A stretch of DNA of 64,000 nt from Thiohalomonadales bacterium. Its GTDB lineage: Bacteria; Pseudomonadota; Gammaproteobacteria; RBG-16-57-12. Where the stretch lies: positions 10,219 through 74,218 of the forward strand of contig JBNKQQ010000083.1 in the NCBI GenBank assembly GCA_050295955.1, given 5' to 3'. A model generated the notes under the pieces. That model was not told where the DNA came from, made no database searches, and saw only the letters and a list, made by a program, of their open reading frames with translations. Both the position numbers and the translations under genes were made by a program. Each line of letters starts with the position of its first letter. Position 1 is the stretch's first letter. Positions 1,331 through 64,000 of the stretch are shown here, one piece after another.

Positions 1331-1429
1331 ATATTGATGGACAATTTTTTATTTGTTTTGTGTAGGAGCCTGCTTGCAGGCGATTTATTACTCAAGCTAT
1401 CGCCTGCAAGCAGGCTCCTACATCAATAT
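1331..1429. repeat. Inverted REP pair with outer inverted flanks (BIME-like palindromic unit) just upstream of the RAYT gene
   Basis: gtaggagcctgcttgcaggcgat at 1362-1384 and its exact reverse complement at 1399-1421. Outer atattgatg / catcaatat arms. The same REP recurs at 56975-57182. Confidence 0.75.
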
Positions 1430-49200: not shown

Positions 49201-50253
49201 ATGGATGATCAAAGCAATCCAATGGGAACTGATGGTTTCGAGTTCATCGAATATACCGCTGCTGATACCCGGGCATTGGAAGCGCTATTTCAGCAGATGG
49301 GCTTTTCTGCCGTGGCGCGGCATCGCTCCAAAGATGTGGTGCTCTACCGCCAGGGTGATATCAACTTTGTGATTAATCATGAGCCAAACAGCTTTGCTCA
49401 GAGTTTTGCTGATGTGCATGGTCCCTCCTGCTGCGCCTTTGCGATTCGTGTGAAGGATGCCGCCAAGGCCTATCAGCGTGCACTGAAGCTGGGGGCTGAG
49501 CCTTTCAATGGCAAAGTCGGGCCTATGGAACTGAATATCCCCGCTATCCGAGGTATTGGCCGAAGCCTGCTCTATCTGGTGGATCGCTACGAGCATGGCT
49601 CTATCTATGATGTGGATTTTGTTCCTATTGAGGGGGCTGATCTGAATCCTAAAGGGGTGGGGCTGATGCAGATTGATCATCTGACCCATAATGTGCACAA
49701 GGGGCGAATGGATCAGTGGGCCCACTTCTATGAAACCCTGTTTAATTTTAAAGAGATTCGCTATTTCGATATCCATGGTAAGGCGACTGGCCTGAAATCC
49801 CGGGCAATGACCAGCCCTTGTGGGAAGATTCGTATTCCCATTAATGAACCATCAGATGCCAAGTCGCAGATTCAAGAATACCTGGATGCCTATCACGGTG
49901 AGGGAATACAGCATATCGCCCTGACGACTAATGACATTTATGAGAGCATCGAGATGTTGAGGTCAAATGGGGTGGAGCTGATGGATGTGCCGGACACCTA
50001 TTATGAGATGGTGGATAAGCGCCTGCCAGGCCATGGGGAGGATCTGGGGCGTTTGAGTAAGAATCGTATTCTGATTGATGGTGATCCTGCCAATCAAAAG
50101 GGGTTGCTGCTACAGATCTTTACCCAAACGGTGATCGGTCCCATCTTCTTTGAGATTATCCAGCGTAAGGGTAACGAAGGGTTTGGTGAGGGTAACTTCC
50201 GTGCACTGTTTGAATCCATCGAATTGGATCAAATGCGCAGAGGAGTGCTGTAA
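49201..50253 (+). CDS. hppD: 4-hydroxyphenylpyruvate dioxygenase
   Basis: Colinear with Pseudomonas HPPD (NPMG..GFEFIE, HRSK.V.LYRQG.IN, GEGIQH, FFEFIQRKG..GFGEGNF.ALFESIE.DQ.RRGVL). Confidence 0.9.
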   Translation: MDDQSNPMGTDGFEFIEYTAADTRALEALFQQMGFSAVARHRSKDVVLYRQGDINFVINHEPNSFAQSFADVHGPSCCAFAIRVKDAAKAYQRALKLGAEPFNGKVGPMELNIPAIRGIGRSLLYLVDRYEHGSIYDVDFVPIEGADLNPKGVGLMQIDHLTHNVHKGRMDQWAHFYETLFNFKEIRYFDIHGKATGLKSRAMTSPCGKIRIPINEPSDAKSQIQEYLDAYHGEGIQHIALTTNDIYESIEMLRSNGVELMDVPDTYYEMVDKRLPGHGEDLGRLSKNRILIDGDPANQKGLLLQIFTQTVIGPIFFEIIQRKGNEGFGEGNFRALFESIELDQMRRGVL

Positions 50254-51386
50254 TGGCCAAGAACTGGATCAATTTTCCGCGCAGTGAAGGGGAGAGCAGC
50301 GGACAGGCCCATGCAGATCTTCCGGCTGGCAGTTACGAGCGGGAACTGGGACGTGAAGGTTTTTTTGGTCCCGCAACCCAGATGTATCATCGTCATCCCC
50401 CCACTGGCTGGAGCCATTTTAACGGCCCTGTTCGCCCTCGTGCCATCGATACCTGCAAACTTACCCGTACAGTTAACTCGCCCTGGCAGGCAACCCCATT
50501 ATTGGGCAATGCCCATGTGAAGATTCGTCTGTGGCGCAATAGCGGTAATATGGACCACTTGATACGAAACAGCGATGGGGATGAGTTGCTGTTTATCCAC
50601 CAGGGGAAGGGGGAGCTGTTTTGCGACTATGGCCACCTAAGCTTCACCGAAGGGGACTACATTCTGCTGCCACGAGGCACTATGTGGCGAATCGAGAGTC
50701 AGGATGAGCTGAGTGTATTGATGATTGAGGCCACTAACGAGGCCTATTATCTACCAGAGAAGGGGATTGTTGGACAGCACGCGATTTTTGATCCGGCAAT
50801 GCTGGACACACCAAAGATCGATGGGGCATTTCTACAGCAGCAGGATGAAAACCCCTGGCAGGTGGTGGTCAAACGGGCCAATCAACTGACAACCATTGAG
50901 TATCCCTACAATCCGCTAGATGCCATTGGCTGGCATGGCGATCTAACCACGGTGAGAATTAACTGGCGGGATATCCGGCCATTGATGAGCCACCGTTATC
51001 ATCTGCCTCCATCCGCCCACTCCACCTTTGTGGCACCACGCTTCGTGGTCTGTACCTTTTGTCCCCGGCCCATGGAGAGTGATCCTGGCGCTTTGAAGGT
51101 ACCGTTTTTCCATAGTAATGACGATTTTGACGAGGTGATCTTTTATCACATGGGAGAGTTCTTCTCCCGGGACAATATCCACCCCGGCATGATTACCTTC
51201 CATCCCTGCGGATTCCCCCATGGTCCTCATCCCAAGGCGTTGGCCGCCGGAATTCAGGCAAAGCGTCAGGATACCAATGAGGTGGCGGTGATGATTGATA
51301 CGCGGGATGGTTTGGAGTTGGCACTGCTTCCAGATGGGGTGGAATGGCAAGGCTATGTTGATTCCTGGAAAGGGGAGAGTAAATGA
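50253..51386 (+). CDS. hmgA: Homogentisate 1,2-dioxygenase (short form)
   Basis: Lies between hppD and fahA. Cupin architecture with WHG and FHSND/FHPCGFPHGPHP segments resembling HmgA. 377 aa, shorter than ~430-aa forms. Confidence 0.6.
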   Translation: MAKNWINFPRSEGESSGQAHADLPAGSYERELGREGFFGPATQMYHRHPPTGWSHFNGPVRPRAIDTCKLTRTVNSPWQATPLLGNAHVKIRLWRNSGNMDHLIRNSDGDELLFIHQGKGELFCDYGHLSFTEGDYILLPRGTMWRIESQDELSVLMIEATNEAYYLPEKGIVGQHAIFDPAMLDTPKIDGAFLQQQDENPWQVVVKRANQLTTIEYPYNPLDAIGWHGDLTTVRINWRDIRPLMSHRYHLPPSAHSTFVAPRFVVCTFCPRPMESDPGALKVPFFHSNDDFDEVIFYHMGEFFSRDNIHPGMITFHPCGFPHGPHPKALAAGIQAKRQDTNEVAVMIDTRDGLELALLPDGVEWQGYVDSWKGESK

Positions 51387-52363
51387 AGCTGGCATCACTA
51401 AAAACAGGCTCTCGAGATGGTACGCTGATTGTGGTTAGTCGTGACCTGGAGCGTTATACACCAGTACCACTGCCAGAAACTCTACAGCAGGCGCTAGAGG
51501 CGTGGAGTGATAACCAACCATTATTGGAAACGCTCTACCAGCAACTCAATGAGGGTGAGATTAGCGGTCTGCCGCTGGAGGTGAATGAGTTGGCTTCACC
51601 CCTACCCAGGGCCTACCAATGGTTGGATGGTAGTGCCTACCTCAGTCATGTGGAGAGGGTGAGGCGTGCCCGTGGTGCAGAGATGCCACCCAGCTTTCTT
51701 CATGATCCTTTGATGTACCAGGGAGGATCGGATACCTTCTTAGGGCCTCGGGATGAGATTGTTGCCCAAGAGGCTTGGGGCATTGACCTGGAAGCGGAAG
51801 TGGCAGTCATCACTGATGATGTGCCCATGGGGGTGAGCGTGGATGAGGCAGGAACCCATATTCGCCTGGTGATGTTGGTGAATGATGTCTCACTACGCAA
51901 CCTGATTCCCAATGAGTTAGCCAAGGGATTTGGCTTTCTCCATGGCAAGCCGCCTAGCGCCTTTTCCCCGGTAGCCGTTACACCCAATGAATTGGGTGAG
52001 GCGTGGCGTGATCATAAATTACATCTGCCTCTGTTAGCCCGGCTCAATGGCCAGCTATTGGGTCATCCCAATGCAGGGGTGGACATGCAGTTCAGCTTTG
52101 CTCAACTAATTGCCCATGCCGCGACCACCCGTCCTCTGGCCGCAGGTACAATTATTGGTTCCGGCACGGTCTCTAACCAAGATCAGGACAAAGGGGTCTG
52201 TTGTTTAGCGGAGCGTCGGGTGCTGGAGATTATCGAAAAGGGTGAAGCGAAGACACCTTTCCTCAAACACGCTGATGAGGTGATGATTGAGATGGAGAAT
52301 GAAAGAGGGGAAAATCTATTCGGAGCCATTGTGCAACGGATTAACTGCCAGGAGTCAGACTGA
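51383..52363 (+). CDS. fahA: Fumarylacetoacetate hydrolase family protein (fumarylacetoacetase)
   Basis: FAH-fold motifs. Operon position between hmgA and maiA. Confidence 0.7.
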   Translation: MKLASLKTGSRDGTLIVVSRDLERYTPVPLPETLQQALEAWSDNQPLLETLYQQLNEGEISGLPLEVNELASPLPRAYQWLDGSAYLSHVERVRRARGAEMPPSFLHDPLMYQGGSDTFLGPRDEIVAQEAWGIDLEAEVAVITDDVPMGVSVDEAGTHIRLVMLVNDVSLRNLIPNELAKGFGFLHGKPPSAFSPVAVTPNELGEAWRDHKLHLPLLARLNGQLLGHPNAGVDMQFSFAQLIAHAATTRPLAAGTIIGSGTVSNQDQDKGVCCLAERRVLEIIEKGEAKTPFLKHADEVMIEMENERGENLFGAIVQRINCQESD

Positions 52364-53026
52364 GTGTCTTCCTATATCCTTTATACCTATTTTCGTAGTA
52401 GTGCCGCTTATCGGGTTCGCATTGCCTTAAATCTCAAAGGGATCGAATACCATCCCCACTATGTTCACCTAAAGAGAGGGGAGGATAAGCAGCAGGCTTA
52501 TCGCAATATCAACCCACTGGGGCTGGTACCCACCTTACAGGTACAGGGGCATCACAACGATGTGGTGATTACCCAATCAATGGCAGCTATCGAATACCTG
52601 GAAGAGACACACCCTGAACCGAGCTTACTGCCGGGCTCAGCAGCCCTGCGGGCGCAGATCCGCGCCTTTGCCCAGAGCATCTGCTGCGATATTCACCCAC
52701 TCAATAATCTTCGGGTGCTCAATTATCTGGAACATCCCATGGGGATCAGCGAGACCCCACGCAAACTCTGGTATTGCAACTGGATTGATACTGGCCTGAG
52801 CGCCTTGGAAGAGATCATGCGGCGGCGGGATGAGAATACACCATATTGTTTTGGGGAGGCGCCCACCATGGCGGATGTATGCCTGATTCCCCAGCTCTAC
52901 AATGCCAAACGTTTTGACTGTGATACCAAAGCCTATCCTATTTTGACCCAGATCTATGACAACTGCCTGCAGCTGGAAGCGTTCCAGCGGGCAGCGCCTG
53001 AAAACCAGGCAGACTGGGAGGATTAG
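52364..53026 (+). CDS. maiA: Maleylacetoacetate isomerase (GST zeta class)
   Basis: LYTYFRSSAAYRVRIALNLKGI ... SMAAIEYLEE typical of GST zeta/MaiA. Confidence 0.85.
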   Translation: MSSYILYTYFRSSAAYRVRIALNLKGIEYHPHYVHLKRGEDKQQAYRNINPLGLVPTLQVQGHHNDVVITQSMAAIEYLEETHPEPSLLPGSAALRAQIRAFAQSICCDIHPLNNLRVLNYLEHPMGISETPRKLWYCNWIDTGLSALEEIMRRRDENTPYCFGEAPTMADVCLIPQLYNAKRFDCDTKAYPILTQIYDNCLQLEAFQRAAPENQADWED

Positions 53027-56608: not shown

Positions 56609-56869
56609 ATGTCACTACTCGATTATCTATTGCGAAAAAAGAAAAAGCCCAGCGCCTCGGTCGCCAAAGAGCGTCTACAGATCATCCTGGCCCGAGAGCA
56701 CGGTAATGACGAACCAGACTTCCTGCCAGAACTTAAACGGGAACTGCTGGAAGTGATCAGCAAATACACCAACATTGATTTGGATGAGATCAGCGTCAAT
56801 CTGGATAAAGAGGACGACTGCGAAATCCTTGAAGTCAACGTAGTGTTGAATAAGAAGGATGCGGCGTAA
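56609..56869 (+). CDS. minE: Cell division topological specificity factor MinE
   Basis: MSLLDYLLRKKKK N-terminus. 86 aa. Confidence 0.95.
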   Translation: MSLLDYLLRKKKKPSASVAKERLQIILAREHGNDEPDFLPELKRELLEVISKYTNIDLDEISVNLDKEDDCEILEVNVVLNKKDAA

Positions 56870-56960: not shown

Positions 56961-57200
56961 TTCTAAAAGTGTGTGTAGGAGCCTGCTTGCAGGCGATGGG
57001 CTTTTATATCGCTATTGCTGTAGGAGCTTGCCCTGCAAGCGAACCCACTCAATTCTAATAAGCGTGTGTAGGAGCCTGCTTGCAGGCGATGGGTTTTTAT
57101 ATCGCTACTGCTGTAGGGGCTTGCCCTGCAAGCGAACCCACTCAATTCTAATAAGCGTGTGTAGGAGCCTGCTTGCAGGCGATGGGTTTTCATATCGCTA
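56961..57200 (+). repeat. Tandem BIME-like array: ~91-bp units each containing REP (gtaggagcctgcttgcaggcgat) and variant REP' (gtagg[a/g]gcttgccctgcaagcga)
   Basis: Units begin at ~56961, 57051 and 57143. REP is identical to the pair at 1362-1421. A further REP variant lies at 57528-57550. Confidence 0.8.
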
Positions 57201-57204
57201 CCGC

Positions 57205-57571
57205 GATGAAGTGGATATCACTTCGTGAGGTTTTATTGGCATCGGGATTCCGTCCCGATAGCCGGGTCACTTTTTTACCGTAAAAAAGTAACCAAAAAAG
57301 CTCTCCCGAAAAATGCGGTCGCCAACAACGCGACTTCCCTCGGTTCTCACTATGAACAGCACTCCTGGCAACTCGCTTCGCTCAAACATGCCATCCGCTT
57401 AATCTGTTCATCGCTGCGAGCCTCGGCACATTTGAACGGGGATGAAAGGCATGGCATATTCCGCTAACGCGGAAGAAAAAGTCATTCTGCACTTGATTCA
57501 GAATCCAGGCTAATTCTAAAAAGCGTATGTGGGAGCCTACTTGCTGGCGATGGGTTTTATATCGCTACCGC
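57205..57571 (+). repeat. Structured repeat element, copy L1 (hairpin-rich, ~200-bp conserved core)
   Basis: Hairpins gaagtg-gatat-cacttc, atcggga-ttccg-tcccgat, cttttttac-c-gtaaaaaag. Core ggtcgccaacaacgcgacttccctcggttctcac...caaacatgccatccgc...gcgagcctcggc...catttgaacgg. Confidence 0.75.
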
Positions 57572-57900
57572 GATGAAGTGGATATCACTTCGTGAGGTTT
57601 TGTTGGCATCGGGATTCCGTCCCGATAGCCGGGTCACTTTTTTACCGTAAAAAAGTAACCCAAAAAACTCCCCCGAAATATGGTCGCCAACACCGAGACT
57701 TCCCTCGGCTCTCGCTACGAATGGCGCTACTGGCAACTCGCAAACTACGCTCAAACATGCCATCCGCTCTTTCCGTTCGTAGCTACGAGCCTCGGCAGTA
57801 TTTGAACGGGAATGAACGGCGTTTATATATTTCGCTAACGCGAAAGATGAAGAGCCGCTTCGCGGAGTAATTGAATGGGTGCTTGCGACCCGTTGTAGCC
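57572..57900 (+). repeat. Structured repeat element, copy L2
   Basis: Same architecture as L1 with indels and paired substitutions. Putative ORF frames differ between copies, so noncoding. Confidence 0.75.
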
Positions 57901-58090
57901 ATTGGCAGGCAGCTAATTGAACGTCAGCCATTGGTAAAAATTAACAATCAATATATACATTCAAATAGATTGGGTTGACTAGGTATCCCATGCAAGCAAA
58001 GTTGCAAATTGGCTTAATGATCAATAGTGCTCTTGGAAGGAACCTCCTTCCGATAACACTACTTGCACCGGATTGCTGTTGGTGAATGAA

Positions 58091-59173
58091 TTACGAATGG
58101 GGGGGCTCAAGTCTAGGTGAACAAACCCCTGATGTAGGCATCGTAATTCCCCATGGATAAGCCGGAGTTTCTCCTCGTTGATACTGGTAAACTGTTACCT
58201 TAGGTAAATTTCGTTTGTCATAAAGTGTTCCAAAGCGGAATACCAAACTGCTCGGCCCAGCGATAAAAAGGTGGATGTGGTTAATTCCGTAACTGTCCAA
58301 TTTAGTGAGCATTTCAAGAAATTGCCTGCCTAATGCTCGCTGCTTGTCTTCTGACCAGTGAGAGTCTGGCCCAGCATTCTGCAATTCGAGATGAATTAAT
58401 GGAATATTAGGTAGTTTCTTCTGAATCTCAGGTAAATTGGCTATGTATGATATAGAAATGGCTAAGACTGCCTCTGTTGATTCTTGGTCAAGTTGTGTCC
58501 CAAGATATTTAGTATCAAAGCGATTTCCATCGTCAGCTTTTTCAAGCTGCTGCCATCTTTTTTTATGTCGCTCCCAATCAAAGATATGAATTTCCGATTC
58601 ATCATCTAGAATTGTCCCTGCTAGAAAAGTTAGAGGAACAGGGGCCAGTCCTCCAAATACAGTTGTAATATCATTTCTATTGTTTCCAGCTTCATATTGG
58701 TCAAGCTGATAAGTGATATGTACTAATTTATCTAGAGCAACTTGAGGTTCAACGATATAGCCATCTCTAATATTTTGCCTGAGATCTACTAGTATGCTAT
58801 TACGTCTTCCCTCAAAGTAGGGGGGGAGCGATTCATTTAAAGGAGTACCGGCTGAATCGCGAAGCCCTCTTACTTCAATAACATTTACTCTTTTGCGCGA
58901 TAACGCTCGATATTCCATGGTATGTCTAATTATTTCCCATGGTATGGCTATTGATATTAATGCAATACCGAGGAAGTAAGTTGTATAGATCAAGAGTGAA
59001 GGAATATTTCCCTCAATATCGATATCTAATTTGAAAGAGTCTCCACTTTCAACAGAAAAGGTAATATCTGCAGCAGCAGCTAGAGTGAGTAGAAATACCC
59101 CTGCTCTTAGAAAATACAATGCAGGTGACTTTTTACGAATAATCCAGTATATGATTTGTTTAATTATTGTCAC
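58091..59173 (-). CDS. CBASS-like effector: N-terminal 2-TM domain fused to a SAVED-like (CARF-related) sensor domain
   Basis: Two N-terminal TM helices. C-terminal ~270 aa ending HIHLFIAGPSSLVFRFGTLYD, resembling the SAVED C-terminal motif. Immediately downstream of the nucleotidyltransferase. Confidence 0.5.
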   Translation of the reverse strand: MTIIKQIIYWIIRKKSPALYFLRAGVFLLTLAAAADITFSVESGDSFKLDIDIEGNIPSLLIYTTYFLGIALISIAIPWEIIRHTMEYRALSRKRVNVIEVRGLRDSAGTPLNESLPPYFEGRRNSILVDLRQNIRDGYIVEPQVALDKLVHITYQLDQYEAGNNRNDITTVFGGLAPVPLTFLAGTILDDESEIHIFDWERHKKRWQQLEKADDGNRFDTKYLGTQLDQESTEAVLAISISYIANLPEIQKKLPNIPLIHLELQNAGPDSHWSEDKQRALGRQFLEMLTKLDSYGINHIHLFIAGPSSLVFRFGTLYDKRNLPKVTVYQYQRGETPAYPWGITMPTSGVCSPRLEPPHS

Positions 59174-59195
59174 GTCTTTAGTTACCTCCCCGCTT

Positions 59196-60710
59196 CTATT
59201 GGATATTCACTATAAATTGCCCACTACGCGCTGCTAGCAGTCCATCTTTTACTATAAAGCATTCTATGCTGTGCATACCTTTATAGGAGGTGGACTCCTG
59301 TCTTGTTAATGAGTTGCAGTCTCTAGAAAAGTCACCCCGTAATCCACAAGCCAATTTAGCTTCGTTACCAGTATTTACCACCTGCCAGTGTACTTTATAT
59401 GGAGGTGGAATATTTGTTGTAGCCTCAAACTTTAAATCGCAGTTTTTCGGCAAGGCTTCACCGTTGCTATCAAATCGGTATGGCCCATATTTATTCTTTC
59501 TATATGTAGCCTTTGCAATTTGAACATTCCCTTGTACTGAAGTCTTCCAAGGGGGAGTTTGTTTATGGGGAGGATTTAGAGCTAACTGTTTGCTTGAATG
59601 ATGGTGTATGTCACTGTAATTTACGTTGTTCTTTGAAAGTGATGCATCGATTAGTTTTTTTCCTAATCTAGGTGTGAGGGTATTAGCTGCAGATTCCTCA
59701 TTTAGTGCATTAGCTGCACTGTAGAAATCTTCTCTCGCTTGGGCGAGCCACTCATAGAATGCACCTTTCCTTTCAGGATATTGTTGCCAGCGGTCAGAAA
59801 AATTTTCAGCCGGGTCCGTCGGGTTGGGTATCCATGACACTCCATTACGTGTCTCTATAAAGCTATCCATGCGTTGAAGAATACTATACAGTGCCCCTGA
59901 TATAGTCGGTTCTTGCTGGTATGCATGACCTGCCAATGTGGTTAAAATAATGGATATGGGCTTTTCATCCAATCGTTTAGCAAACATAGTATTCCTATGA
60001 TGCTTGAGAAGTTGAATAGCTGACTGTAGTGGTGTACGAACCTTATAGTCTGGTATATCTTCAACGCTAGCATTAATTGCATAAGCAAGTTCCTTTTTTC
60101 TCTGCTCAAAAATCACAGTCATTCGGGATTTGAACCAGTCGCTATATCCCTTAGGGTTGCTATGTGGCCAATAAGAAGTGATGCATTTGTAATATGGGTG
60201 ATCCCTATCAGTAATGGCGATTGCAGATTCAGACCATTTCGAAGAAAATCCTCTGCTAGCAAGAAGATATCTCATATCCTCCCCGTCAGGGATTGCAGGC
60301 AGTGTATCCAAATGAAATTGTGCACCATCAGCATAGTTTTGGGTCCAACAGCGTCTGCCTTCATCAGGTATTTTCATTTCATGTGCTTTCGCATACTCCT
60401 TTAACTCAAAACCCAAGGCTTCCTTCAATTGATGTTGTGTTAATGAGCTTTTTGACAAAGTCAGTTCACAAACTAGATCAATGTCATAATCGTCATCACC
60501 TGAGTGGGGTTTAATGACTGTTCCTAAACGAAATGATCCTTGAACGTATACCTGTGGATTTGCATCTTTAAGCTTGGAGCTATCTCTGTTTAGCCATTTA
60601 CCAACTGATGTATAGCTGCGCTCTGCTGCTTCATATCTGCTGGGAGATATTTGTAGTGCTTCTACTGCATTTTCAAGTAGCTTTTCAGTGTGTTTCTTAA
60701 TGTTTGTCAT
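59196..60710 (-). CDS. SMODS/CD-NTase-type (cGAS/DncV-like) nucleotidyltransferase with ~300-aa C-terminal extension (possible AGS-C sensor)
   Basis: QGSFRLGTVIKPHSGDDDYDIDLV = GS...[DE]x[DE] Pol-beta NTase motif, in SMODS-like N-terminal context (..Y..V..WL). 504 aa. Confidence 0.6.
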   Translation of the reverse strand: MTNIKKHTEKLLENAVEALQISPSRYEAAERSYTSVGKWLNRDSSKLKDANPQVYVQGSFRLGTVIKPHSGDDDYDIDLVCELTLSKSSLTQHQLKEALGFELKEYAKAHEMKIPDEGRRCWTQNYADGAQFHLDTLPAIPDGEDMRYLLASRGFSSKWSESAIAITDRDHPYYKCITSYWPHSNPKGYSDWFKSRMTVIFEQRKKELAYAINASVEDIPDYKVRTPLQSAIQLLKHHRNTMFAKRLDEKPISIILTTLAGHAYQQEPTISGALYSILQRMDSFIETRNGVSWIPNPTDPAENFSDRWQQYPERKGAFYEWLAQAREDFYSAANALNEESAANTLTPRLGKKLIDASLSKNNVNYSDIHHHSSKQLALNPPHKQTPPWKTSVQGNVQIAKATYRKNKYGPYRFDSNGEALPKNCDLKFEATTNIPPPYKVHWQVVNTGNEAKLACGLRGDFSRDCNSLTRQESTSYKGMHSIECFIVKDGLLAARSGQFIVNIQ

Positions 60711-60729
60711 ATATTCTTAACCTCTCCAA

Positions 60730-60963
60730 TCAATCTTTAGGTGGATATGGGTCATTGCCATGACTATCGCTACTGGCAATACGTCCATTTTTATTGTGAA
60801 TGCGCAATTCAGTGCCTTGATTGCGACTGGTTTCACGCCCTTTGCTGATAGCATCAGCTTTTGTTTTATGGTGGCTGCTTGCCCGTTGAGCTTCACCACG
60901 TTTAACATCCCAGCCACCTTGAGGGTTGGATACGATGTGATGCGTTTTAGGACCTTTTGGCAT
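60730..60963 (-). CDS. DUF2188 small protein, immediately upstream of and co-oriented with the nucleotidyltransferase
   Basis: KGPKTHHIV.NP.GGWDVKR...RASSHH.TKADAI..GRE.SRNQGTEL.IH.K.GRI...DSHGNDP.PPKD matches DUF2188 consensus. Confidence 0.65.
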   Translation of the reverse strand: MPKGPKTHHIVSNPQGGWDVKRGEAQRASSHHKTKADAISKGRETSRNQGTELRIHNKNGRIASSDSHGNDPYPPKD

Positions 60964-61269
60964 AATAATGCTCCTTTGCTTTATATATTTAACTAATTTT
61001 TAATCGATTATTAAGGGTTTCCTCAATTGCATACCTAATAGCAATTAGAGATAAATATCCCCTAGTGCTTATATATACTGCTGAGAATAAAAAAGTGGCG
61101 ATTTTTTGTAAAAACTTATAAGTCACTGTTAATGAAGGATAAAATTTTGTGCCGAATTCATTTTGTTAATTTGGCCTGTTGTAGATATAATTATTCTTAT
61201 ATAAATTTTATGGTGAATTTTTTCTCCACTTTTGCATTTTGAACAGTATTAGGGATATAGGAGGAAGTT

Positions 61270-61842
61270 TTGAGCGACCAAGCACATTACACTGAAATTG
61301 AGGTTGAGGAACTTATTCAAGGGCTTACTGATTCTCAAATAGCCAAGATGCTGCATGTTTATCGAAATAAGGGATGTCAGCAAAGGGCGGGACTATCAGG
61401 GCATGATGTTTTTCAAAATGCTGTAATGAAAGCTTTATCAAAAAAGAATTGCTGGAAAAAGGGAATCCCTGCTGAAGCTTATCTAATTATGCTAGGAAAA
61501 AATTATATAAGTAATGAGGAGAAAAAATATTCACGGAATGTTTATGAATCACAATCTGATAATTTACAGATTGAGGCACTTCCTATAACAGCTGTAGACT
61601 GCTCTGAACACACTCATGAGTTCATAATTCAGGAATGGGTTGGTAAAATTGTTAGCCTCTTTGCTGATGATAAAGATGCTTCTTGTTTTTTGAAAAGCAA
61701 GTTGGCACAGGCCAAAAAAGCTAAAATACTCGCTTTATGTAGATTTACAGATCAGGCATATCGAAATGTTGAAAAAAGGATTAAAGATAAGGCAAGGAAG
61801 AGATTTCCTGGTGGTGTGCCGTTTAATGAGGCAACGCTATGA
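61270..61842 (+). CDS. Hypothetical protein (190 aa), first gene of a divergent tri-cistronic operon
   Basis: TTG start with GGAGGA RBS. No recognisable domain. Its stop overlaps the next start. Confidence 0.4.
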   Translation: MSDQAHYTEIEVEELIQGLTDSQIAKMLHVYRNKGCQQRAGLSGHDVFQNAVMKALSKKNCWKKGIPAEAYLIMLGKNYISNEEKKYSRNVYESQSDNLQIEALPITAVDCSEHTHEFIIQEWVGKIVSLFADDKDASCFLKSKLAQAKKAKILALCRFTDQAYRNVEKRIKDKARKRFPGGVPFNEATL

Positions 61843-62276
61843 GTGCTGAATTTCTTAAAATGATCAATGAGTACATTATCGATTCAATTATTGAATGTGA
61901 TGATGATGAGTATTTGTCAAATATAGGAAAGGATGGTTATTCATCTCAAGAGGACATTGACTTTGCTAGATCATTTATCCAAGCCACTGTTAGGGAGCTA
62001 AGGCAAGAGCGCTTAAATGCTAGTAGAGAGCGTTATGCTCAATCAAAAAGCCAAAAAAGTGGTGTATTAGATACCATTTCTACAACAAAGCCTCTCCAAG
62101 AGATGCTTACTCAGATTATTTCAGTGATGCAAAGTGAAGAGCAGGTGCCTGATGGGTTACTTATCGCTTTTAGGGAACAAGGGAAAACTGGTAGTGAAGA
62201 GGGTATTCGCAATATATGGAAATCTCTCGTTGAGCTTGGATTAATTGATCCTGAGAAGGATGAAAATTCGAAATGA
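61839..62276 (+). CDS. Hypothetical acidic protein (145 aa), second gene of the operon
   Basis: ATGA overlaps on both sides. No recognisable domain. Confidence 0.4.
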   Translation: MSAEFLKMINEYIIDSIIECDDDEYLSNIGKDGYSSQEDIDFARSFIQATVRELRQERLNASRERYAQSKSQKSGVLDTISTTKPLQEMLTQIISVMQSEEQVPDGLLIAFREQGKTGSEEGIRNIWKSLVELGLIDPEKDENSK

Positions 62277-63040
62277 GGTTCAAGCAACAACCCAATGATA
62301 TTTTGAAAAGGCTTGGCATGTATGAGCCTGAAGATATTGATTTGGATTTAATTGCATTTGATTTGGGTGCTGAGGTGAAAAGAGCATCGTTGAATGATTG
62401 TGAAGGGAATATCCTAGGAACGTCAACGAAGGCAATTATTACAATTAATAAGATTTCTAGAATTGAAAGGCAGCGTTTTTCATTAGGACATGAGTTGGGA
62501 CACTGGGTAAATGATCGGGGAAAAAATTTAACTTATCGTTGTACTACGGACGATATGCGGCAACGCTCTATGATTCAAGAAGATTTTCGCCAAAATAAAG
62601 AAGTGCGTGCAAATCAATTTTCAGCAGAGCTCCTTATGCCTGACTTCATATTCAAAAGGTATGCTGAAAATTTGGATATTATCCTAAAGACAGCAAGATA
62701 CCTTGCAAATACTTTTAATGTGTCACTCACAAGTACCGTTATAAGGCTTGTTGAGTTATCTGAGAGGCCATGCATGATTATTTGCTGGGACAAGATGGGT
62801 AAACGGCGCTGGTTCTCACGTAACGATATTATTCCTGAAAAAATATGGCCACATGAAAGAATTTTTCATCCTCAAGAAGTATTCAAGCTTTCAGATGGAG
62901 TAGAGGTGGATGCTGATAAATGGATCAACTTGGCAGGATCAGAGAATTACACCGTAATCGAAAGTATATTTTCAAATACATATGACTTTTTATCACTCAT
63001 TTGGTGGAAGGATGAAGAGCAGCTAGCTCACTATCTATGA
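62273..63040 (+). CDS. ImmA/IrrE-family zinc metallopeptidase (CapP-like) with C-terminal Cys/His-containing domain
   Basis: HELGHW (HExxH) at the N-terminal peptidase core. Downstream E in QFSAELLMP. C-terminal CMIIC ... HERIFH. Confidence 0.6.
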   Translation: MRFKQQPNDILKRLGMYEPEDIDLDLIAFDLGAEVKRASLNDCEGNILGTSTKAIITINKISRIERQRFSLGHELGHWVNDRGKNLTYRCTTDDMRQRSMIQEDFRQNKEVRANQFSAELLMPDFIFKRYAENLDIILKTARYLANTFNVSLTSTVIRLVELSERPCMIICWDKMGKRRWFSRNDIIPEKIWPHERIFHPQEVFKLSDGVEVDADKWINLAGSENYTVIESIFSNTYDFLSLIWWKDEEQLAHYL

Positions 63041-63084
63041 GCTGCTACCTCAGATGATTCTCTACCTATAGCTATGACTACTTA

Positions 63085-63420
63085 GTACCGCATGCGGCCA
63101 TCCAATTTTTCCTACAAAGCGGTTCTTTTTCTTTTGCGTTAGCAAAACATAAAATGCTTTTCACATCCCGTTCAAATGCAGCCGAGGCTCGCAGCTGTGG
63201 ACGGATAGAGCGGATGGCATGTTTGAGCGTAGTTTGCGAGTTGCCAGGAGCACCGTTCGCAGTGAGAACCGAGGGAAGTCGCGTTGTTGGCGACCGGTAT
63301 TTTCGGGCCTTCTCTTTGATTACTTTCTCTTGGCCGTTCAAGAGAAAGTCATTAGCTGTCGGGCTACCCCCGACATCTCATTAATCGTCACGCAGTGACA
63401 CATAATCTTACCGCAGAGCC
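63085..63420 (-). repeat. Structured repeat element, copy R1 (inverted relative to L1/L2)
   Basis: The reverse complement matches the L-copy core (ggtcgccaacaacgcgacttccctcggttctcac...). Hairpins actttctcttg-aacggc-caagagaaagt and tgtcggg-ggtag-cccgaca replace the L-copy hairpins at the same positions. Confidence 0.75.
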
Positions 63421-63489
63421 AGTAGGGCAGGCTCACTACAGTGATAGTGATATAAAAATCGCGACTCGATTACTGTATTGCATTTCTGT

Positions 63490-63835
63490 GAGTTGAAGCC
63501 TGGATTCTGAATCAAGTTCAGAATGACTTTTTCTTTCGCGTTAGCGAAACATTAAATGCAGTTAATTCCCGTTCAAATACAGCCGAGGCTCGCAGCTGTG
63601 GACGGATAGAGCGGATGGCATGTTTGAGCGTAGTTTGCGAGTTTCCAGGAGCACCGTTCGCAGTGAGAACCGAGGGAAGTCGCGTTGTTTGCGACCTGTA
63701 TTTTCGGGCGGCCTTCTCTTTGATGACTTTCTCTTGGCCGTTCAAGAGAAAGTCATTAGCTGTCGGGTTACCCCCGACATCTCATTAATCGTCACGCAGT
63801 GACACATAATCTTACCGCAGAGCCAGTAGGATGCG
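63490..63835 (-). repeat. Structured repeat element, copy R2
   Basis: Near identical to R1. Confidence 0.75.
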
Positions 63836-63939
63836 GTGATAACCGCATCGATCGAGACAGAATCATTACACGACTGATGCGGTTCGTTCCTCACCACATC
63901 CTACATTGAATGACCGCTCCAGCCGCTTTTGGCCATCTA

Positions 63940-64000
63940 ATTTATCTCGCGTAGCGGTTCTTCTTTTTTCGCGTTAGCGGAATATAAAATGCCTTTCCTA
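63940..64000 (-). repeat. Structured repeat element, copy R3 (partial, truncated by window end)
   Basis: cttcttttttcgcgttagcggaatataaaatgc parallels the R1/R2 starts. Confidence 0.5.

Follow-up and report, generated by a model that had tools for sequence, protein, structure and literature searches.

The repeats downstream of minE in this Thiohalomonadales bacterium belong to a widespread family of folded, apparently mobile intergenic elements that is listed in no RNA catalogue we searched, and here they are amplified into two inverted arrays on either side of an acquired anti-phage (CBASS) island. The window, by which we mean the whole 64,000-nucleotide stretch analysed (contig JBNKQQ010000083.1, positions 10,219 to 74,218), holds four full copies and one cut copy of a 0.37–0.40 kb unit. 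Units L1 and L2 lie on one side of the low-GC, 5.2-kb island, and R1, R2 and R3 lie inverted on the other side, with R3 cut by the window end (Table 1). A preliminary description made from the sequence alone had reported a multi-copy repeat with conserved hairpins and compensatory substitutions at 57205–57900. That observation is confirmed, although the repeat is larger than those coordinates.

Table 1. Repeat units and neighbouring features in the window. Unit boundaries are approximate (alignments place the start of R3 at about 63925); the last two columns give bit scores from an earlier search and from the family-level model R2.
Feature	Coordinates	Strand	Contents	Earlier search (bits)	Model R2 (bits)
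REP copies	56967..57200	+	Three REP copies (GTAGGAGCCTGCTTGCAGGCGAT, at 56975, 57068 and 57161) spaced 93 bp apart; the first two each pair with an inverted, diverged REP to form two complete tandem 93-bp doublet units; between the minE terminator and L1; a different repeat family sharing the intergenic region
Unit L1	57185..57551	-	Rod/core 57306-57450 (apex 57370-57388, GCGAAGC form); weak terminator-like hairpin 57318-57334; pyrimidine tract (minus strand) 57290-57301; AT-rich perfect hairpin HA 57269-57289; GC hairpin HB 57241-57259; hairpin HC about 57206-57226; upstream palindrome H0 57459-57474; junction hairpin CTGGATTC..GAATGAC 57482-57510	156	126
Unit L2	57552..57925	-	Rod/core 57673-57820 (apex 57735-57757); HA 57636-57656; HB 57608-57626; H0 57830-57845; degenerate REP 57529-57551 in the L1-L2 spacer; 'type a' head about 57846-57895 adjoining the island	169	134
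CBASS island (context, not part of the repeat)	57926..63089	.	SAVED-2TM effector 58091-59173 (-); CD-NTase 59196-60710 (-); DUF2188 60730-60963 (-); two unknown genes 61270-61842 and 61839-62276 (+); CapP-like M78 peptidase 62273-63040 (+); GC 34-41%
Unit R1	63090..63527	+	'Type a' head 63090-63131; H0 63132-63147; A/T-rich -10-like box 63150-63155; rod/core 63157-63306 (apex 63220-63242); terminator-like hairpin 63278-63294; pyrimidine tract 63308-63319; HA 63322-63349; HB 63357-63375; HC 63387-63399; REP-like GTAG..CTAC about 63424-63445; junction hairpin 63498-63527	180	133
Unit R2	63528..63925	+	H0 63534-63549; rod/core 63558-63707 (apex 63621-63643); terminator-like hairpin 63679-63695; HA 63726-63753; HB 63761-63779; HC 63791-63803; REPIN-like doublet GTAGGATGCGG...CATCCTAC about 63826-63918	180	130
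Unit R3 (5' part only)	63926..64000	+	'Type a' head; H0 63967-63982, followed by TATAAAAT

The 20-mer GCTCAAACATGCCATCCGCT occurs four times in the window against 0.01 expected, and core identity between copies is 73–100%. The details given in the preliminary description all check out. The change from atgaacag/ctgttcat in L1 to acgaatgg/ccgttcgt in L2 falls in helix 4 of the consensus fold, in which GC–AU double changes occur at two positions, with several changes between G-U and A-U or G-C. The hairpins cttttttac-c-gtaaaaaag and atcggga-ttccg-tcccgat of the L copies and actttctcttg-gccgtt-caagagaaagt and tgtcggg-ctacc-cccgaca of the R copies sit at equivalent positions. Open reading frames differ in frame and length between copies, and no frame shows an excess of synonymous changes. 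However, the strand that folds best is opposite to the orientation first used: it is the minus strand for L and the plus strand for R, with a consensus energy of −41.0 against −29.8 kcal/mol and G-U cells outnumbering A-C cells 13 to 3. An apparent 4-nt deletion in L1 lies in the apical loop and gives the form (GCGAAGC) seen in most relatives. A 16-nt palindrome upstream of each core (TTYYGC-GTTA-GCRRAA) also covaries, with three variants in five copies.

The family is not confined to this genome. Hits to spurious open reading frames, BLAST and motif scans identified relatives in Ralstonia, Variovorax and Comamonas records, in uncultured bacteria and in at least 17 viral or proviral contigs. 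Whereas a word-indexed protein search with the translated repeat found nothing, and the repeat ORFs of the window are themselves absent from the collection, an exhaustive profile search with the same alignment matched the spurious ORFs P0242, P0243 and P0245, which led to three homologous loci (L016–L018). A covariance model built from the window alone hits L017 at 42.8 bits (E = 2e-11) and L016 at 37.2 bits (E = 1e-9), and also hits pairs in Variovorax and Ralstonia. Resemblances in Pasteurella and Aeromonas are partial and unconfirmed by the models; Pasteurella shows only the flanking HA hairpins and a pair-like layout and was matched by neither model. The apex 19-mer occurs in 96 viral-contig stretches. 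Of 63 distinct instances, 34 carry the rod and 32 carry the pyrimidine tract and pyrimidine-armed hairpin 3' of it, nearly all of these rod-bearing; the latter feature is present in L1, L2, R1 and R2. The family-level model R2 (not to be confused with unit R2) links the window copies to 17 viral-contig copies (E = 1e-14 to 0.01). About 25 apex instances, of the type seen at locus L030 and of the '...GTGCGCCAG|apex' type, have no rod or HA, are not matched by the model and were excluded from the family.

Other searches returned no relatives. Scans of genome and metagenome contigs with an exact 20-mer, which was too specific a pattern compared with the apex motif, found only a chance match in a Flavobacteriales ABC-transporter gene. 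No match was obtained by blastn of a window unit against plasmids, phages and 5,426 E. coli genomes, or by tblastn with a spurious ORF. We also approached the locus by synteny through MinD relatives. The nearest relatives of this organism lack the element at this locus and in the 20 kb retrieved, the whole block is absent between minE and folE2, and only 85–95 bp separate the two genes; one further locus (L012) proved unrelated. No Rfam 15 family matched at gathering score in the window, and scans of both arrays at E ≤ 10 gave only noise overlapping the units (DABA-DC-AT at 18.6 bits and P31 at 14.9 bits at best, far below their gathering scores). Nothing was found in Rfam for the GC-rich homologues or for eight viral-contig loci. 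Literature searches by sequence strings and by repeat and MITE keywords found no description of the element.

All confirmed relatives share one plan: a rod-like hairpin capped by UGUYUGAGCG-N-AGCGAGUU, then a pyrimidine tract and an AT-rich perfect hairpin, and usually then a GC hairpin. Stem sequences differ completely between taxa. The preliminary description had set loss of covariation in larger alignments as grounds for rejecting its reading, and the opposite was found. With 13 sequences, 26 of 40 pairs carry double compensatory changes; with 21 sequences, 35 of 40 do, with 89% of cells paired against 57% in shuffles and 50% or less in slid controls, and 0 of 500 shuffles reach the observed value. 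These two alignments were fitted to the model and lean towards its structure, but an independent MAFFT/RNAalifold alignment of six distant copies gives 12 of 43 covarying pairs. In helices 4–7 of the 13 sequences, G-U cells outnumber A-C cells 17 to 4, so the folding strand is opposite to the orientation first used.

Elements occur solo, as divergent pairs or, here, as amplified arrays. Mobility is supported by their occurrence at unrelated sites: between nuoC and nuoD, between P2-like head genes, beside higBA and downstream of minE. The earlier interpretation, either a structured non-coding RNA or a hairpin-dependent mobile DNA (REP-like or MITE), is supported, although strict MITE features (short terminal inverted repeats plus target-site duplication) were not found at the ends inspected.

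With moderate confidence, we interpret the units as members of a widespread, low-copy, apparently mobile family of structured intergenic elements, ERIC/REPIN/MITE-like in kind. Each has a rod-like imperfect hairpin of about 100–140 nt with a conserved apex (UGUYUGAGC-loop-GCGAGUU, usually a GCGNAGC mini-hairpin) and an A-rich 5' bulge, followed by a pyrimidine tract that repeats the 5' arm of HA, and usually by HB. In this view, selection keeps the fold rather than the stem sequence on one particular strand, and the element would therefore work as a single-stranded structure, either RNA when transcribed or ssDNA during replication or transposition, and not as a protein-coding sequence or plain duplex DNA. 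One divergent inverted pair would have been tandemly amplified in this genome to give L2-L1 on the minus strand and R1-R2-R3 on the plus strand, with a horizontally acquired CBASS island between the two arms. Our analysis establishes the copies, the conserved fold with its covariation, the strand bias, the breadth of the family, the lack of coding signal, and the absence of the element both from the orthologous locus of the nearest relatives and from around related CBASS modules. That the element is mobile is an inference from distribution alone, because no donor/empty-site pair, target-site duplication, short terminal inverted repeat or associated transposase or recombinase was identified. 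We likewise infer that the arms predate the island, given their host-like GC content (48% against 34–41%), and that the long inverted arms act as a recombination-prone landing site or hotspot rather than as ends of the island.

Some observations weigh against this interpretation. Copy number per replicon is low (one pair in a 2.5-Mb Variovorax replicon, and one pair per Comamonas or Ralstonia replicon), unlike typical REP or MITE families. In Pasteurellaceae-like P2-type prophages the element sits at one fixed position and has diverged in place, which resembles a retained functional part rather than a selfish insert. The window copies also carry features of independent genes: a conserved A/T-rich −10-like box, a covarying palindrome in the spacer position, and a weak hairpin plus T run exactly where the fold ends.

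These features raise the possibility, which we consider unlikely, that the units are multi-copy ('sibling') small RNA genes. Each would have its own promoter (a T-rich region, H0 as operator and the A/T-rich −10) and would give an RNA of about 140 nt that folds into the rod, ends at the GUCGC..GCGAC hairpin plus U run and acts in trans through the invariant GGAUGGCAUGUUUGAGCG segment. Consistent with this, the promoter-like block is conserved in all five copies, including R3; conservation starts a few nucleotides after the −10-like box and drops right after the hairpin plus T run; the terminator-like sites lie on the strand indicated by the G-U bias; and core paralogues are 15–25% diverged yet keep the fold. 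However, the −35 is poor and the terminator is weak (a 5-bp stem and 4 U, degraded in L2), and such sites are near chance frequency in the scans. H0 and the −10 box are not shared by relatives in other taxa, whereas the rod and the downstream hairpins are, and the hairpins beyond the supposed terminator are also under structural constraint. Orientation relative to neighbouring genes is mixed, and many copies sit inside operons. Duplex folding against gene starts in the window revealed no target complementarity above that of shuffled controls. A Csr/Rsm sponge is unlikely because GGA motifs are not conserved: R1 and R2 have five, but L1 and L2 lose two each through changes that preserve helix 4 instead, and there is no RsmX/Y/Z or CsrB hit. 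Hammerhead-like motifs, sought by eye, are not conserved between copies.

It is less likely still that the inverted arms are the functional ends of a cargo-carrying element, like a mobile insertion cassette, that moves together with whatever lies between them and is mobilized in trans, the 'empty' divergent pairs elsewhere being cargo-less derivatives. The same outward-facing arrangement occurs with almost nothing between the arms at four other loci (L018, L019, L020 and L022). At L016, an AT-rich stretch with a TIR-domain gene abuts the 5' side of a plus-strand arm, as at the right junction in the window. The nuoC/nuoD insert is flanked by a 28–29-nt imperfect direct repeat of the nuoD start, and the whole block is missing between minE and folE2 in relatives. 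In contrast, the GC content of the arms matches the host rather than the island; the L and R arms are only 77–90% identical and their outer hairpin modules only 30–60%, so there was no recent joint transposition; the island contains no transposase or integrase; CBASS relatives sit in other islands without arms; solo arms are common (Aeromonas and most viral contigs); and only two cargo cases were seen. A classical MITE, that is, an internally deleted DDE transposon with short terminal inverted repeats and a target-site duplication, in which the hairpins would be incidental, is the most doubtful reading: although the elements are non-coding, occur at scattered intergenic sites and form pairs of 500–770 bp with long inverted arms, no short conserved termini were recognized at the ends inspected, no target duplication was seen at the Variovorax, Ralstonia or Comamonas elements (the nuoC/nuoD repeat being the only case), solo units are frequent, copy number is low in the Variovorax, Comamonas and Ralstonia replicons, and covariation shows selection on an internal fold with strand bias that a DDE substrate does not need.

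More speculatively, and with low confidence, this may be an undescribed, phylogenetically broad class of structured mobile element of beta- and gamma-proteobacteria and their phages. Its defining fold would be a GNA-capped rod followed by a pyrimidine tract and a pyrimidine/purine hairpin that could form a Y*R-Y triple helix. The upstream tract matches the reversed 5' arm in 28 of 32 cases, but the tracts are nearly symmetric (for example, TTTCTTT), so a mirror repeat cannot be told from a direct repeat. The fold would be required for propagation, for example as an ssDNA substrate of an unidentified hairpin-binding enzyme or as a stabilized RNA intermediate, and the inverted pairs would serve as recurrent landing sites or boundaries for defence islands.

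If truly uncatalogued, the family adds a deeply conserved fold with unusually clean covariation to the structured elements of bacteria and phages. Its occurrence in operons, in prophages and next to defence islands gives a concrete handle on how intergenic repeats spread and how defence islands settle at particular sites. In this window, it explains why the CBASS island sits in a region of more than 1.5 kb of repeats downstream of minE. The repeats also break short-read assemblies, as Logan contigs of the same organism end exactly at them, and they generate spurious ORFs in databases.

Among known systems, long direct repeats carrying type I toxin–antitoxin loci (LDR/ldr-rdl, Sib/Ibs) are likewise tandem intergenic repeats of 0.3–0.5 kb, but a small-protein or toxin identity was rejected here because there is no conserved small hydrophobic ORF; the only ORF start shared by all copies is frameshifted in L1, and its product is not conserved. 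Tandem sibling small RNAs are an established category (for example, NgncR_162/163; PMC9973317), to which Qrr, LhrC and PrrF also belong. They share tandem paralogues with a conserved segment and a preserved fold, whereas this family occurs at unrelated loci across classes and inside phage operons, without promoter and terminator conserved across the family. Neisserial intergenic mosaic elements (NIMEs), RS units flanked by dRS3 inverted repeats of about 20 bp, are similarly arrays of different repeat units in one intergenic region next to variable genes. Units here are separated by an ATTC..GAAT-type hairpin (CTGGATTC-loop-GAATGAC), GC-rich relatives have the ATTCCCGC..GCGGGAAT-like form, and a Neisseria-like contig (L065) carries a family member; the units here are larger and have a deeply conserved fold. 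MITEs and mobile insertion cassettes are also non-autonomous with inverted arms, and in this window cargo lies between the arms, but here defining termini and target duplications were not found, and the arms are hundreds of nucleotides long and internally structured.

REP/REPIN elements mobilized by RAYT transposases show hairpin-dependent conservation on one strand, recurring inverted doublets and placement at the 3' side of genes, as here, and genuine REPs (GTAGGAGCCTGCTTGCAGGCGAT) of a separate family lie in the same spacers. REPs are 20–40 nt with a GTAG head and reach tens to hundreds of copies, whereas this unit is about 250–400 nt, low-copy and without a GTAG-headed core, and no RAYT was seen in the window. 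ERIC/IRU and similar transcribed imperfect-palindrome repeats of enterobacteria are, like these elements, non-coding, intergenic, often within operons, folded as a long imperfect hairpin, patchily distributed and variable in size. The elements described here have no sequence match in the E. coli genomes, are longer (a rod plus two further hairpins), carry a conserved apical motif, often occur as divergent pairs and are present in beta- and gamma-proteobacteria and in phage contigs.

The region downstream of minE begins with the minE terminator, followed by three REP copies 93 bp apart, of which the first two form complete 93-bp REP doublet units, and then by two units of a 367-bp repeat, L1 and L2. 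Next comes a 5.2-kb island of 34–41% GC, compared with about 49% elsewhere, and beyond it, in inverted orientation, lie two full units of about 400 bp (R1 and R2) and the start of a third (R3), which is cut by the end of the window. The most conserved 20-mer of the repeat occurs four times, whereas 0.01 occurrences are expected by chance. The repeat reported in the preliminary description is real, and every sequence detail quoted there is present.

The island is a CBASS module that encodes a SAVED-2TM effector, a CD-NTase, a DUF2188 protein, two unknown genes and a CapP-like M78 peptidase (PADLOC capP, E 6e-50). In place of the usual CapH HTH partner seen in relatives (loci L013–L015), there are two genes of 190 and 145 amino acids with no Pfam or PADLOC family. 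Short-read contigs of the same organism (L004 and L005, from Logan SRR36185845) end exactly at the repeat boundaries, showing that the repeats fragment assemblies. Coordinates are collected in the following table.

Positions of the repeats and associated features in the window and in related loci
Sequence	Position	Feature
Window	1354–1421	Inverted REP doublet near 1.4 kb
Window	49201–53026	Homogentisate pathway genes, compared with loci L006 and L009
Window	56609–56869	minE
Window	56967–57200	Two complete tandem 93-bp REP doublet units plus a third copy
Window	57482–57510 and 63498–63527	Junction hairpin at unit boundaries
Window	57529–57551	Degenerate REP copy in the L1–L2 spacer
Window	57855 and 63158, and 131 bp after minE	Ends of the Logan contigs L004 and L005
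Window	61270–63040	Two genes of no Pfam or PADLOC family and the CapP-like M78 peptidase
Window	about 63424–63445	REP-like GTAG..CTAC element, R1–R2 spacer
Window	about 63826–63918	REP-like GTAG..CTAC elements, R2–R3 spacer
L016	1230–2063 and 3889–4115	AT-rich stretch encoding a TIR-domain protein, abutting a family member
L018	9976–10713	690-bp insert between nuoC and nuoD with two inverted family members
L018	10008–10040	GC-rich repeat at the left end of the nuoC/nuoD insert
L019	3720–3780 and 3903–4004	Centre of the Variovorax pair: tandem repeats and a separate GC-rich palindromic repeat

Read on the plus strand for R and the minus strand for L, each unit comprises, in order, a head (of which there are two kinds), a 16-nt palindrome (TTYYGC-GTTA-GCRRAA), an A/T-rich −10-like box, a core of about 145 nt, a weak hairpin plus T run, a pyrimidine tract, an AT-rich perfect hairpin (HA), a GC hairpin (HB), a short hairpin (HC), REP-like sequences that differ from unit to unit, and a junction hairpin, CTGGATTC-loop-GAATGAC. 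The ‘type a’ head precedes R1, R3 and L2, whereas R2 and L1 directly follow the junction hairpin of the preceding unit. Identity is mosaic. R1 and R2 are 93–100% identical in the core and 97–100% in the HA–HB–HC module; L1 and L2 are 73–83% identical in the core and 97–100% in the module; and the L and R units are 77–100% identical in the core but only 30–60% in the module. Even at 30–60% identity, the module keeps the same hairpins between L and R through compensatory changes, and the palindrome has three mutually compensated variants in five copies. No reading frame is conserved, and synonymous changes are not enriched in any frame.

An RNAalifold consensus of the four cores gives a predicted multi-helix fold, the main element of which is a long helix that encloses the invariant segment. 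Three pairs show double changes and several show G-U<->A-U/G-C changes, including the compensated helix that was given as an example in the preliminary description. The fold is better on the R-plus/L-minus strand, with a consensus energy of −41.0 compared with −29.8 kcal/mol and G-U cells outnumbering A-C cells 13 to 3; this strand is opposite to the orientation used for L in that description. With four sequences, of which only three are independent, this evidence was merely suggestive.

Direct scans with the 20-mer, BLAST with a window unit and a word-indexed protein search did not recover relatives. The organism itself is isolated: its MinD is a singleton at 90% identity, and in the nearest relatives (90–91% MinD identity) minE is followed after about 85–95 bp by folE2, with no repeat and no island. 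The neighbourhood has been rearranged more than once, as the homogentisate pathway genes lie between dsbC and the cytochrome c–minCDE block in this organism but not in its nearest relatives.

An exhaustive profile search with the translated repeat then found three Arg/Ala-rich spurious open reading frames, the DNA of which (loci L016–L018) contains clear homologues of both the core and the HA/HB module. The covariance model derived from the window scores L017 at 42.8 bits (E 2e-11) and L016 at 37.2 bits (E 1e-9). BLAST from these GC-rich copies found further examples in a Variovorax paradoxus chromid, a Comamonas plasmid and Ralstonia megaplasmids. An HA-level match led to regions in Pasteurella multocida and Aeromonas caviae. 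In Aeromonas, the window-derived model scores an adjacent minus-strand arm only weakly (17.2 bits), and in Pasteurella neither model matched, such that membership there rests on the HA hairpins and a pair-like layout read by eye.

Scanning viral contigs for the apex motif TGTTTGAGCGNAGCGAGTT gave 96 stretches, whereas we estimate, by inference from the collection size, that chance would give one to three. A family-level model built from 13 sequences scores the window copies at 126–134 bits and matches 17 viral-contig copies at E ≤ 0.01, many of them over the full length. The same 19-mer (TGTTTGAGCGAAGCGAGTT) also occurs in two other conserved contexts that lack the rod-like hairpin and HA, represented by L030, L035, L051, L055 and about 35 similar loci, and by L040, L054, L067, L069, L073, L085 and L098. 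In the second context, in which ...GAAGTGCGCCAG is followed by the 19-mer and then by variable sequence, the 19-mer lies exactly at a conserved/variable junction, as if it marked the end of another element.

Across low-GC and high-GC hosts the plan is the same. A rod-like imperfect hairpin carries the conserved apex, usually a GCGNAGC mini-hairpin flanked by UGUUUGA and GAGUU, with an A-rich bulge on the 5′ side and ‘CCGU’ on the 3′ side; it is followed by a pyrimidine tract that repeats the 5′ arm of a perfect pyrimidine/purine hairpin and often then by a GC hairpin. The apparent 4-nt deletion in L1 is the common GCGAAGC apex, and the other window copies carry a longer loop.

Stems share no sequence between taxa, but they stay paired. 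In an alignment of 13 sequences, 26 of 40 pairs carry double compensatory changes and 91.8% of cells are paired (68.8% in shuffles), and in an alignment of 21 sequences the corresponding values are 35 of 40 and 89% (57% in shuffles and ≤50% in slid controls). In both cases, 0 of 500 shuffles reach the observed value; in the 21-sequence alignment, 177 cells carry double changes, compared with 52 in shuffles. These alignments were fitted to the model and lean towards its structure, although the slid and shuffled controls agree with them, as does an independent MAFFT/RNAalifold alignment of six distant copies, in which 12 of 43 pairs carry double compensatory changes. G-U cells outnumber A-C cells 17 to 4 in the rod. 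No Rfam family matches any member, and we found no paper that describes the element, although a description under another name cannot be excluded.

In Variovorax, Ralstonia (two species) and the nuoC/nuoD insert, the element is a divergent pair, in which the 5′ ends face each other and the hairpin modules point outward. The arms are 138–276 nt long and 83–89% complementary in Variovorax and Ralstonia, but shorter and more fragmented in the nuoC/nuoD insert (89 nt, 80%). Comamonas and Pasteurella show similar inverted arms (66 nt, 82% in Comamonas), but neither was matched by a covariance model. The centre of the Variovorax pair (L019) holds 34–35-bp tandem repeats built around GCCGAGCGAAGCGA(W)GGCC, that is, further GCGAAGC mini-hairpins. 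Aeromonas and most viral contigs carry solo copies.

The sites are unrelated to one another: between nuoC and nuoD, beside higBA, between dapF and xerC, between the small terminase and head-completion genes of P2-like prophages, next to an integrase, and outside a Mu-like prophage. The nuoC/nuoD insert is flanked by a 28–29-nt imperfect direct repeat of the nuoD start, the differences in which are partly synonymous (two of four differing codons), suggesting site-specific integration or import together with flanking gene sequence. P2-like prophages of Pasteurellaceae-like hosts (L027, L036, L049, L104 and similar loci) keep a family member between the small terminase (gpM-like) and head-completion (gpL-like) genes, on the coding strand and followed by a strong terminator; here the element has diverged in place, with compensation in the stems between phages. 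Over the sites as a whole, orientation relative to neighbouring genes is mixed, and copy number per replicon is low.

The window shows the same outward-facing architecture, but with each arm amplified and the CBASS island between the arms. L016 is a second case of a defence-like gene next to an arm: an AT-rich stretch that encodes a CAP12/Pycsar-type TIR-domain protein lies against the 5′ side of a family member, the outer hairpins of which touch the 3′ end of purL. Related CBASS modules elsewhere have no arms.

The analysis shows a conserved single-stranded fold on a defined strand, in a non-coding element with a patchy, multi-site distribution; that the element is mobile, how it was amplified, the order in which arms and island arrived, and any action as RNA or DNA are inferred from sequence alone. 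We consider the best reading, held with about even confidence, to be a mobile structured intergenic element of the ERIC/REPIN/MITE kind, amplified here by unequal exchange, with long inverted arms that bracket, and probably predate, an acquired CBASS island. The proposal in the preliminary description of either a structured non-coding RNA or a hairpin-dependent mobile DNA is supported. The fold may work as RNA, for which the G-U bias, the strand-specific loops and the sense orientation inside phage late operons speak, or as single-stranded DNA, for which speak the stability of GNA-type mini-hairpins, which is very high in DNA, the perfect Watson–Crick pairing of the outer hairpins, the inverted pairing of the units and the mixed orientation relative to genes.

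Alternatively, the units may be sibling small RNA genes, a possible but unlikely reading that is favoured by the local promoter-like and terminator-like features and weakened by the lack of those features in relatives. It is somewhat more doubtful that the arms are the ends of a cargo-carrying element, and a classical MITE is the least likely of the three rivals. A possible Y*R-Y triple helix at the pyrimidine tract and HA is only a speculation, because the tracts are nearly symmetric.

Other repeats share these intergenic regions. The REP family (GTAGGAGCCTGCTTGCAGGCGAT) occurs after minE, as an inverted doublet near 1.4 kb and as a degenerate copy between L1 and L2, whereas different REP-like GTAG..CTAC elements fill the R1–R2 and R2–R3 spacers. 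The junction hairpin CTGGATTC-loop-GAATGAC looks like a low-GC version of the GC-rich repeat GTCATTC(A/C)CGCGAAGGCGGGAATCCAG at the left end of the nuoC/nuoD insert, and it resembles the dRS3-type repeats of Neisseria.
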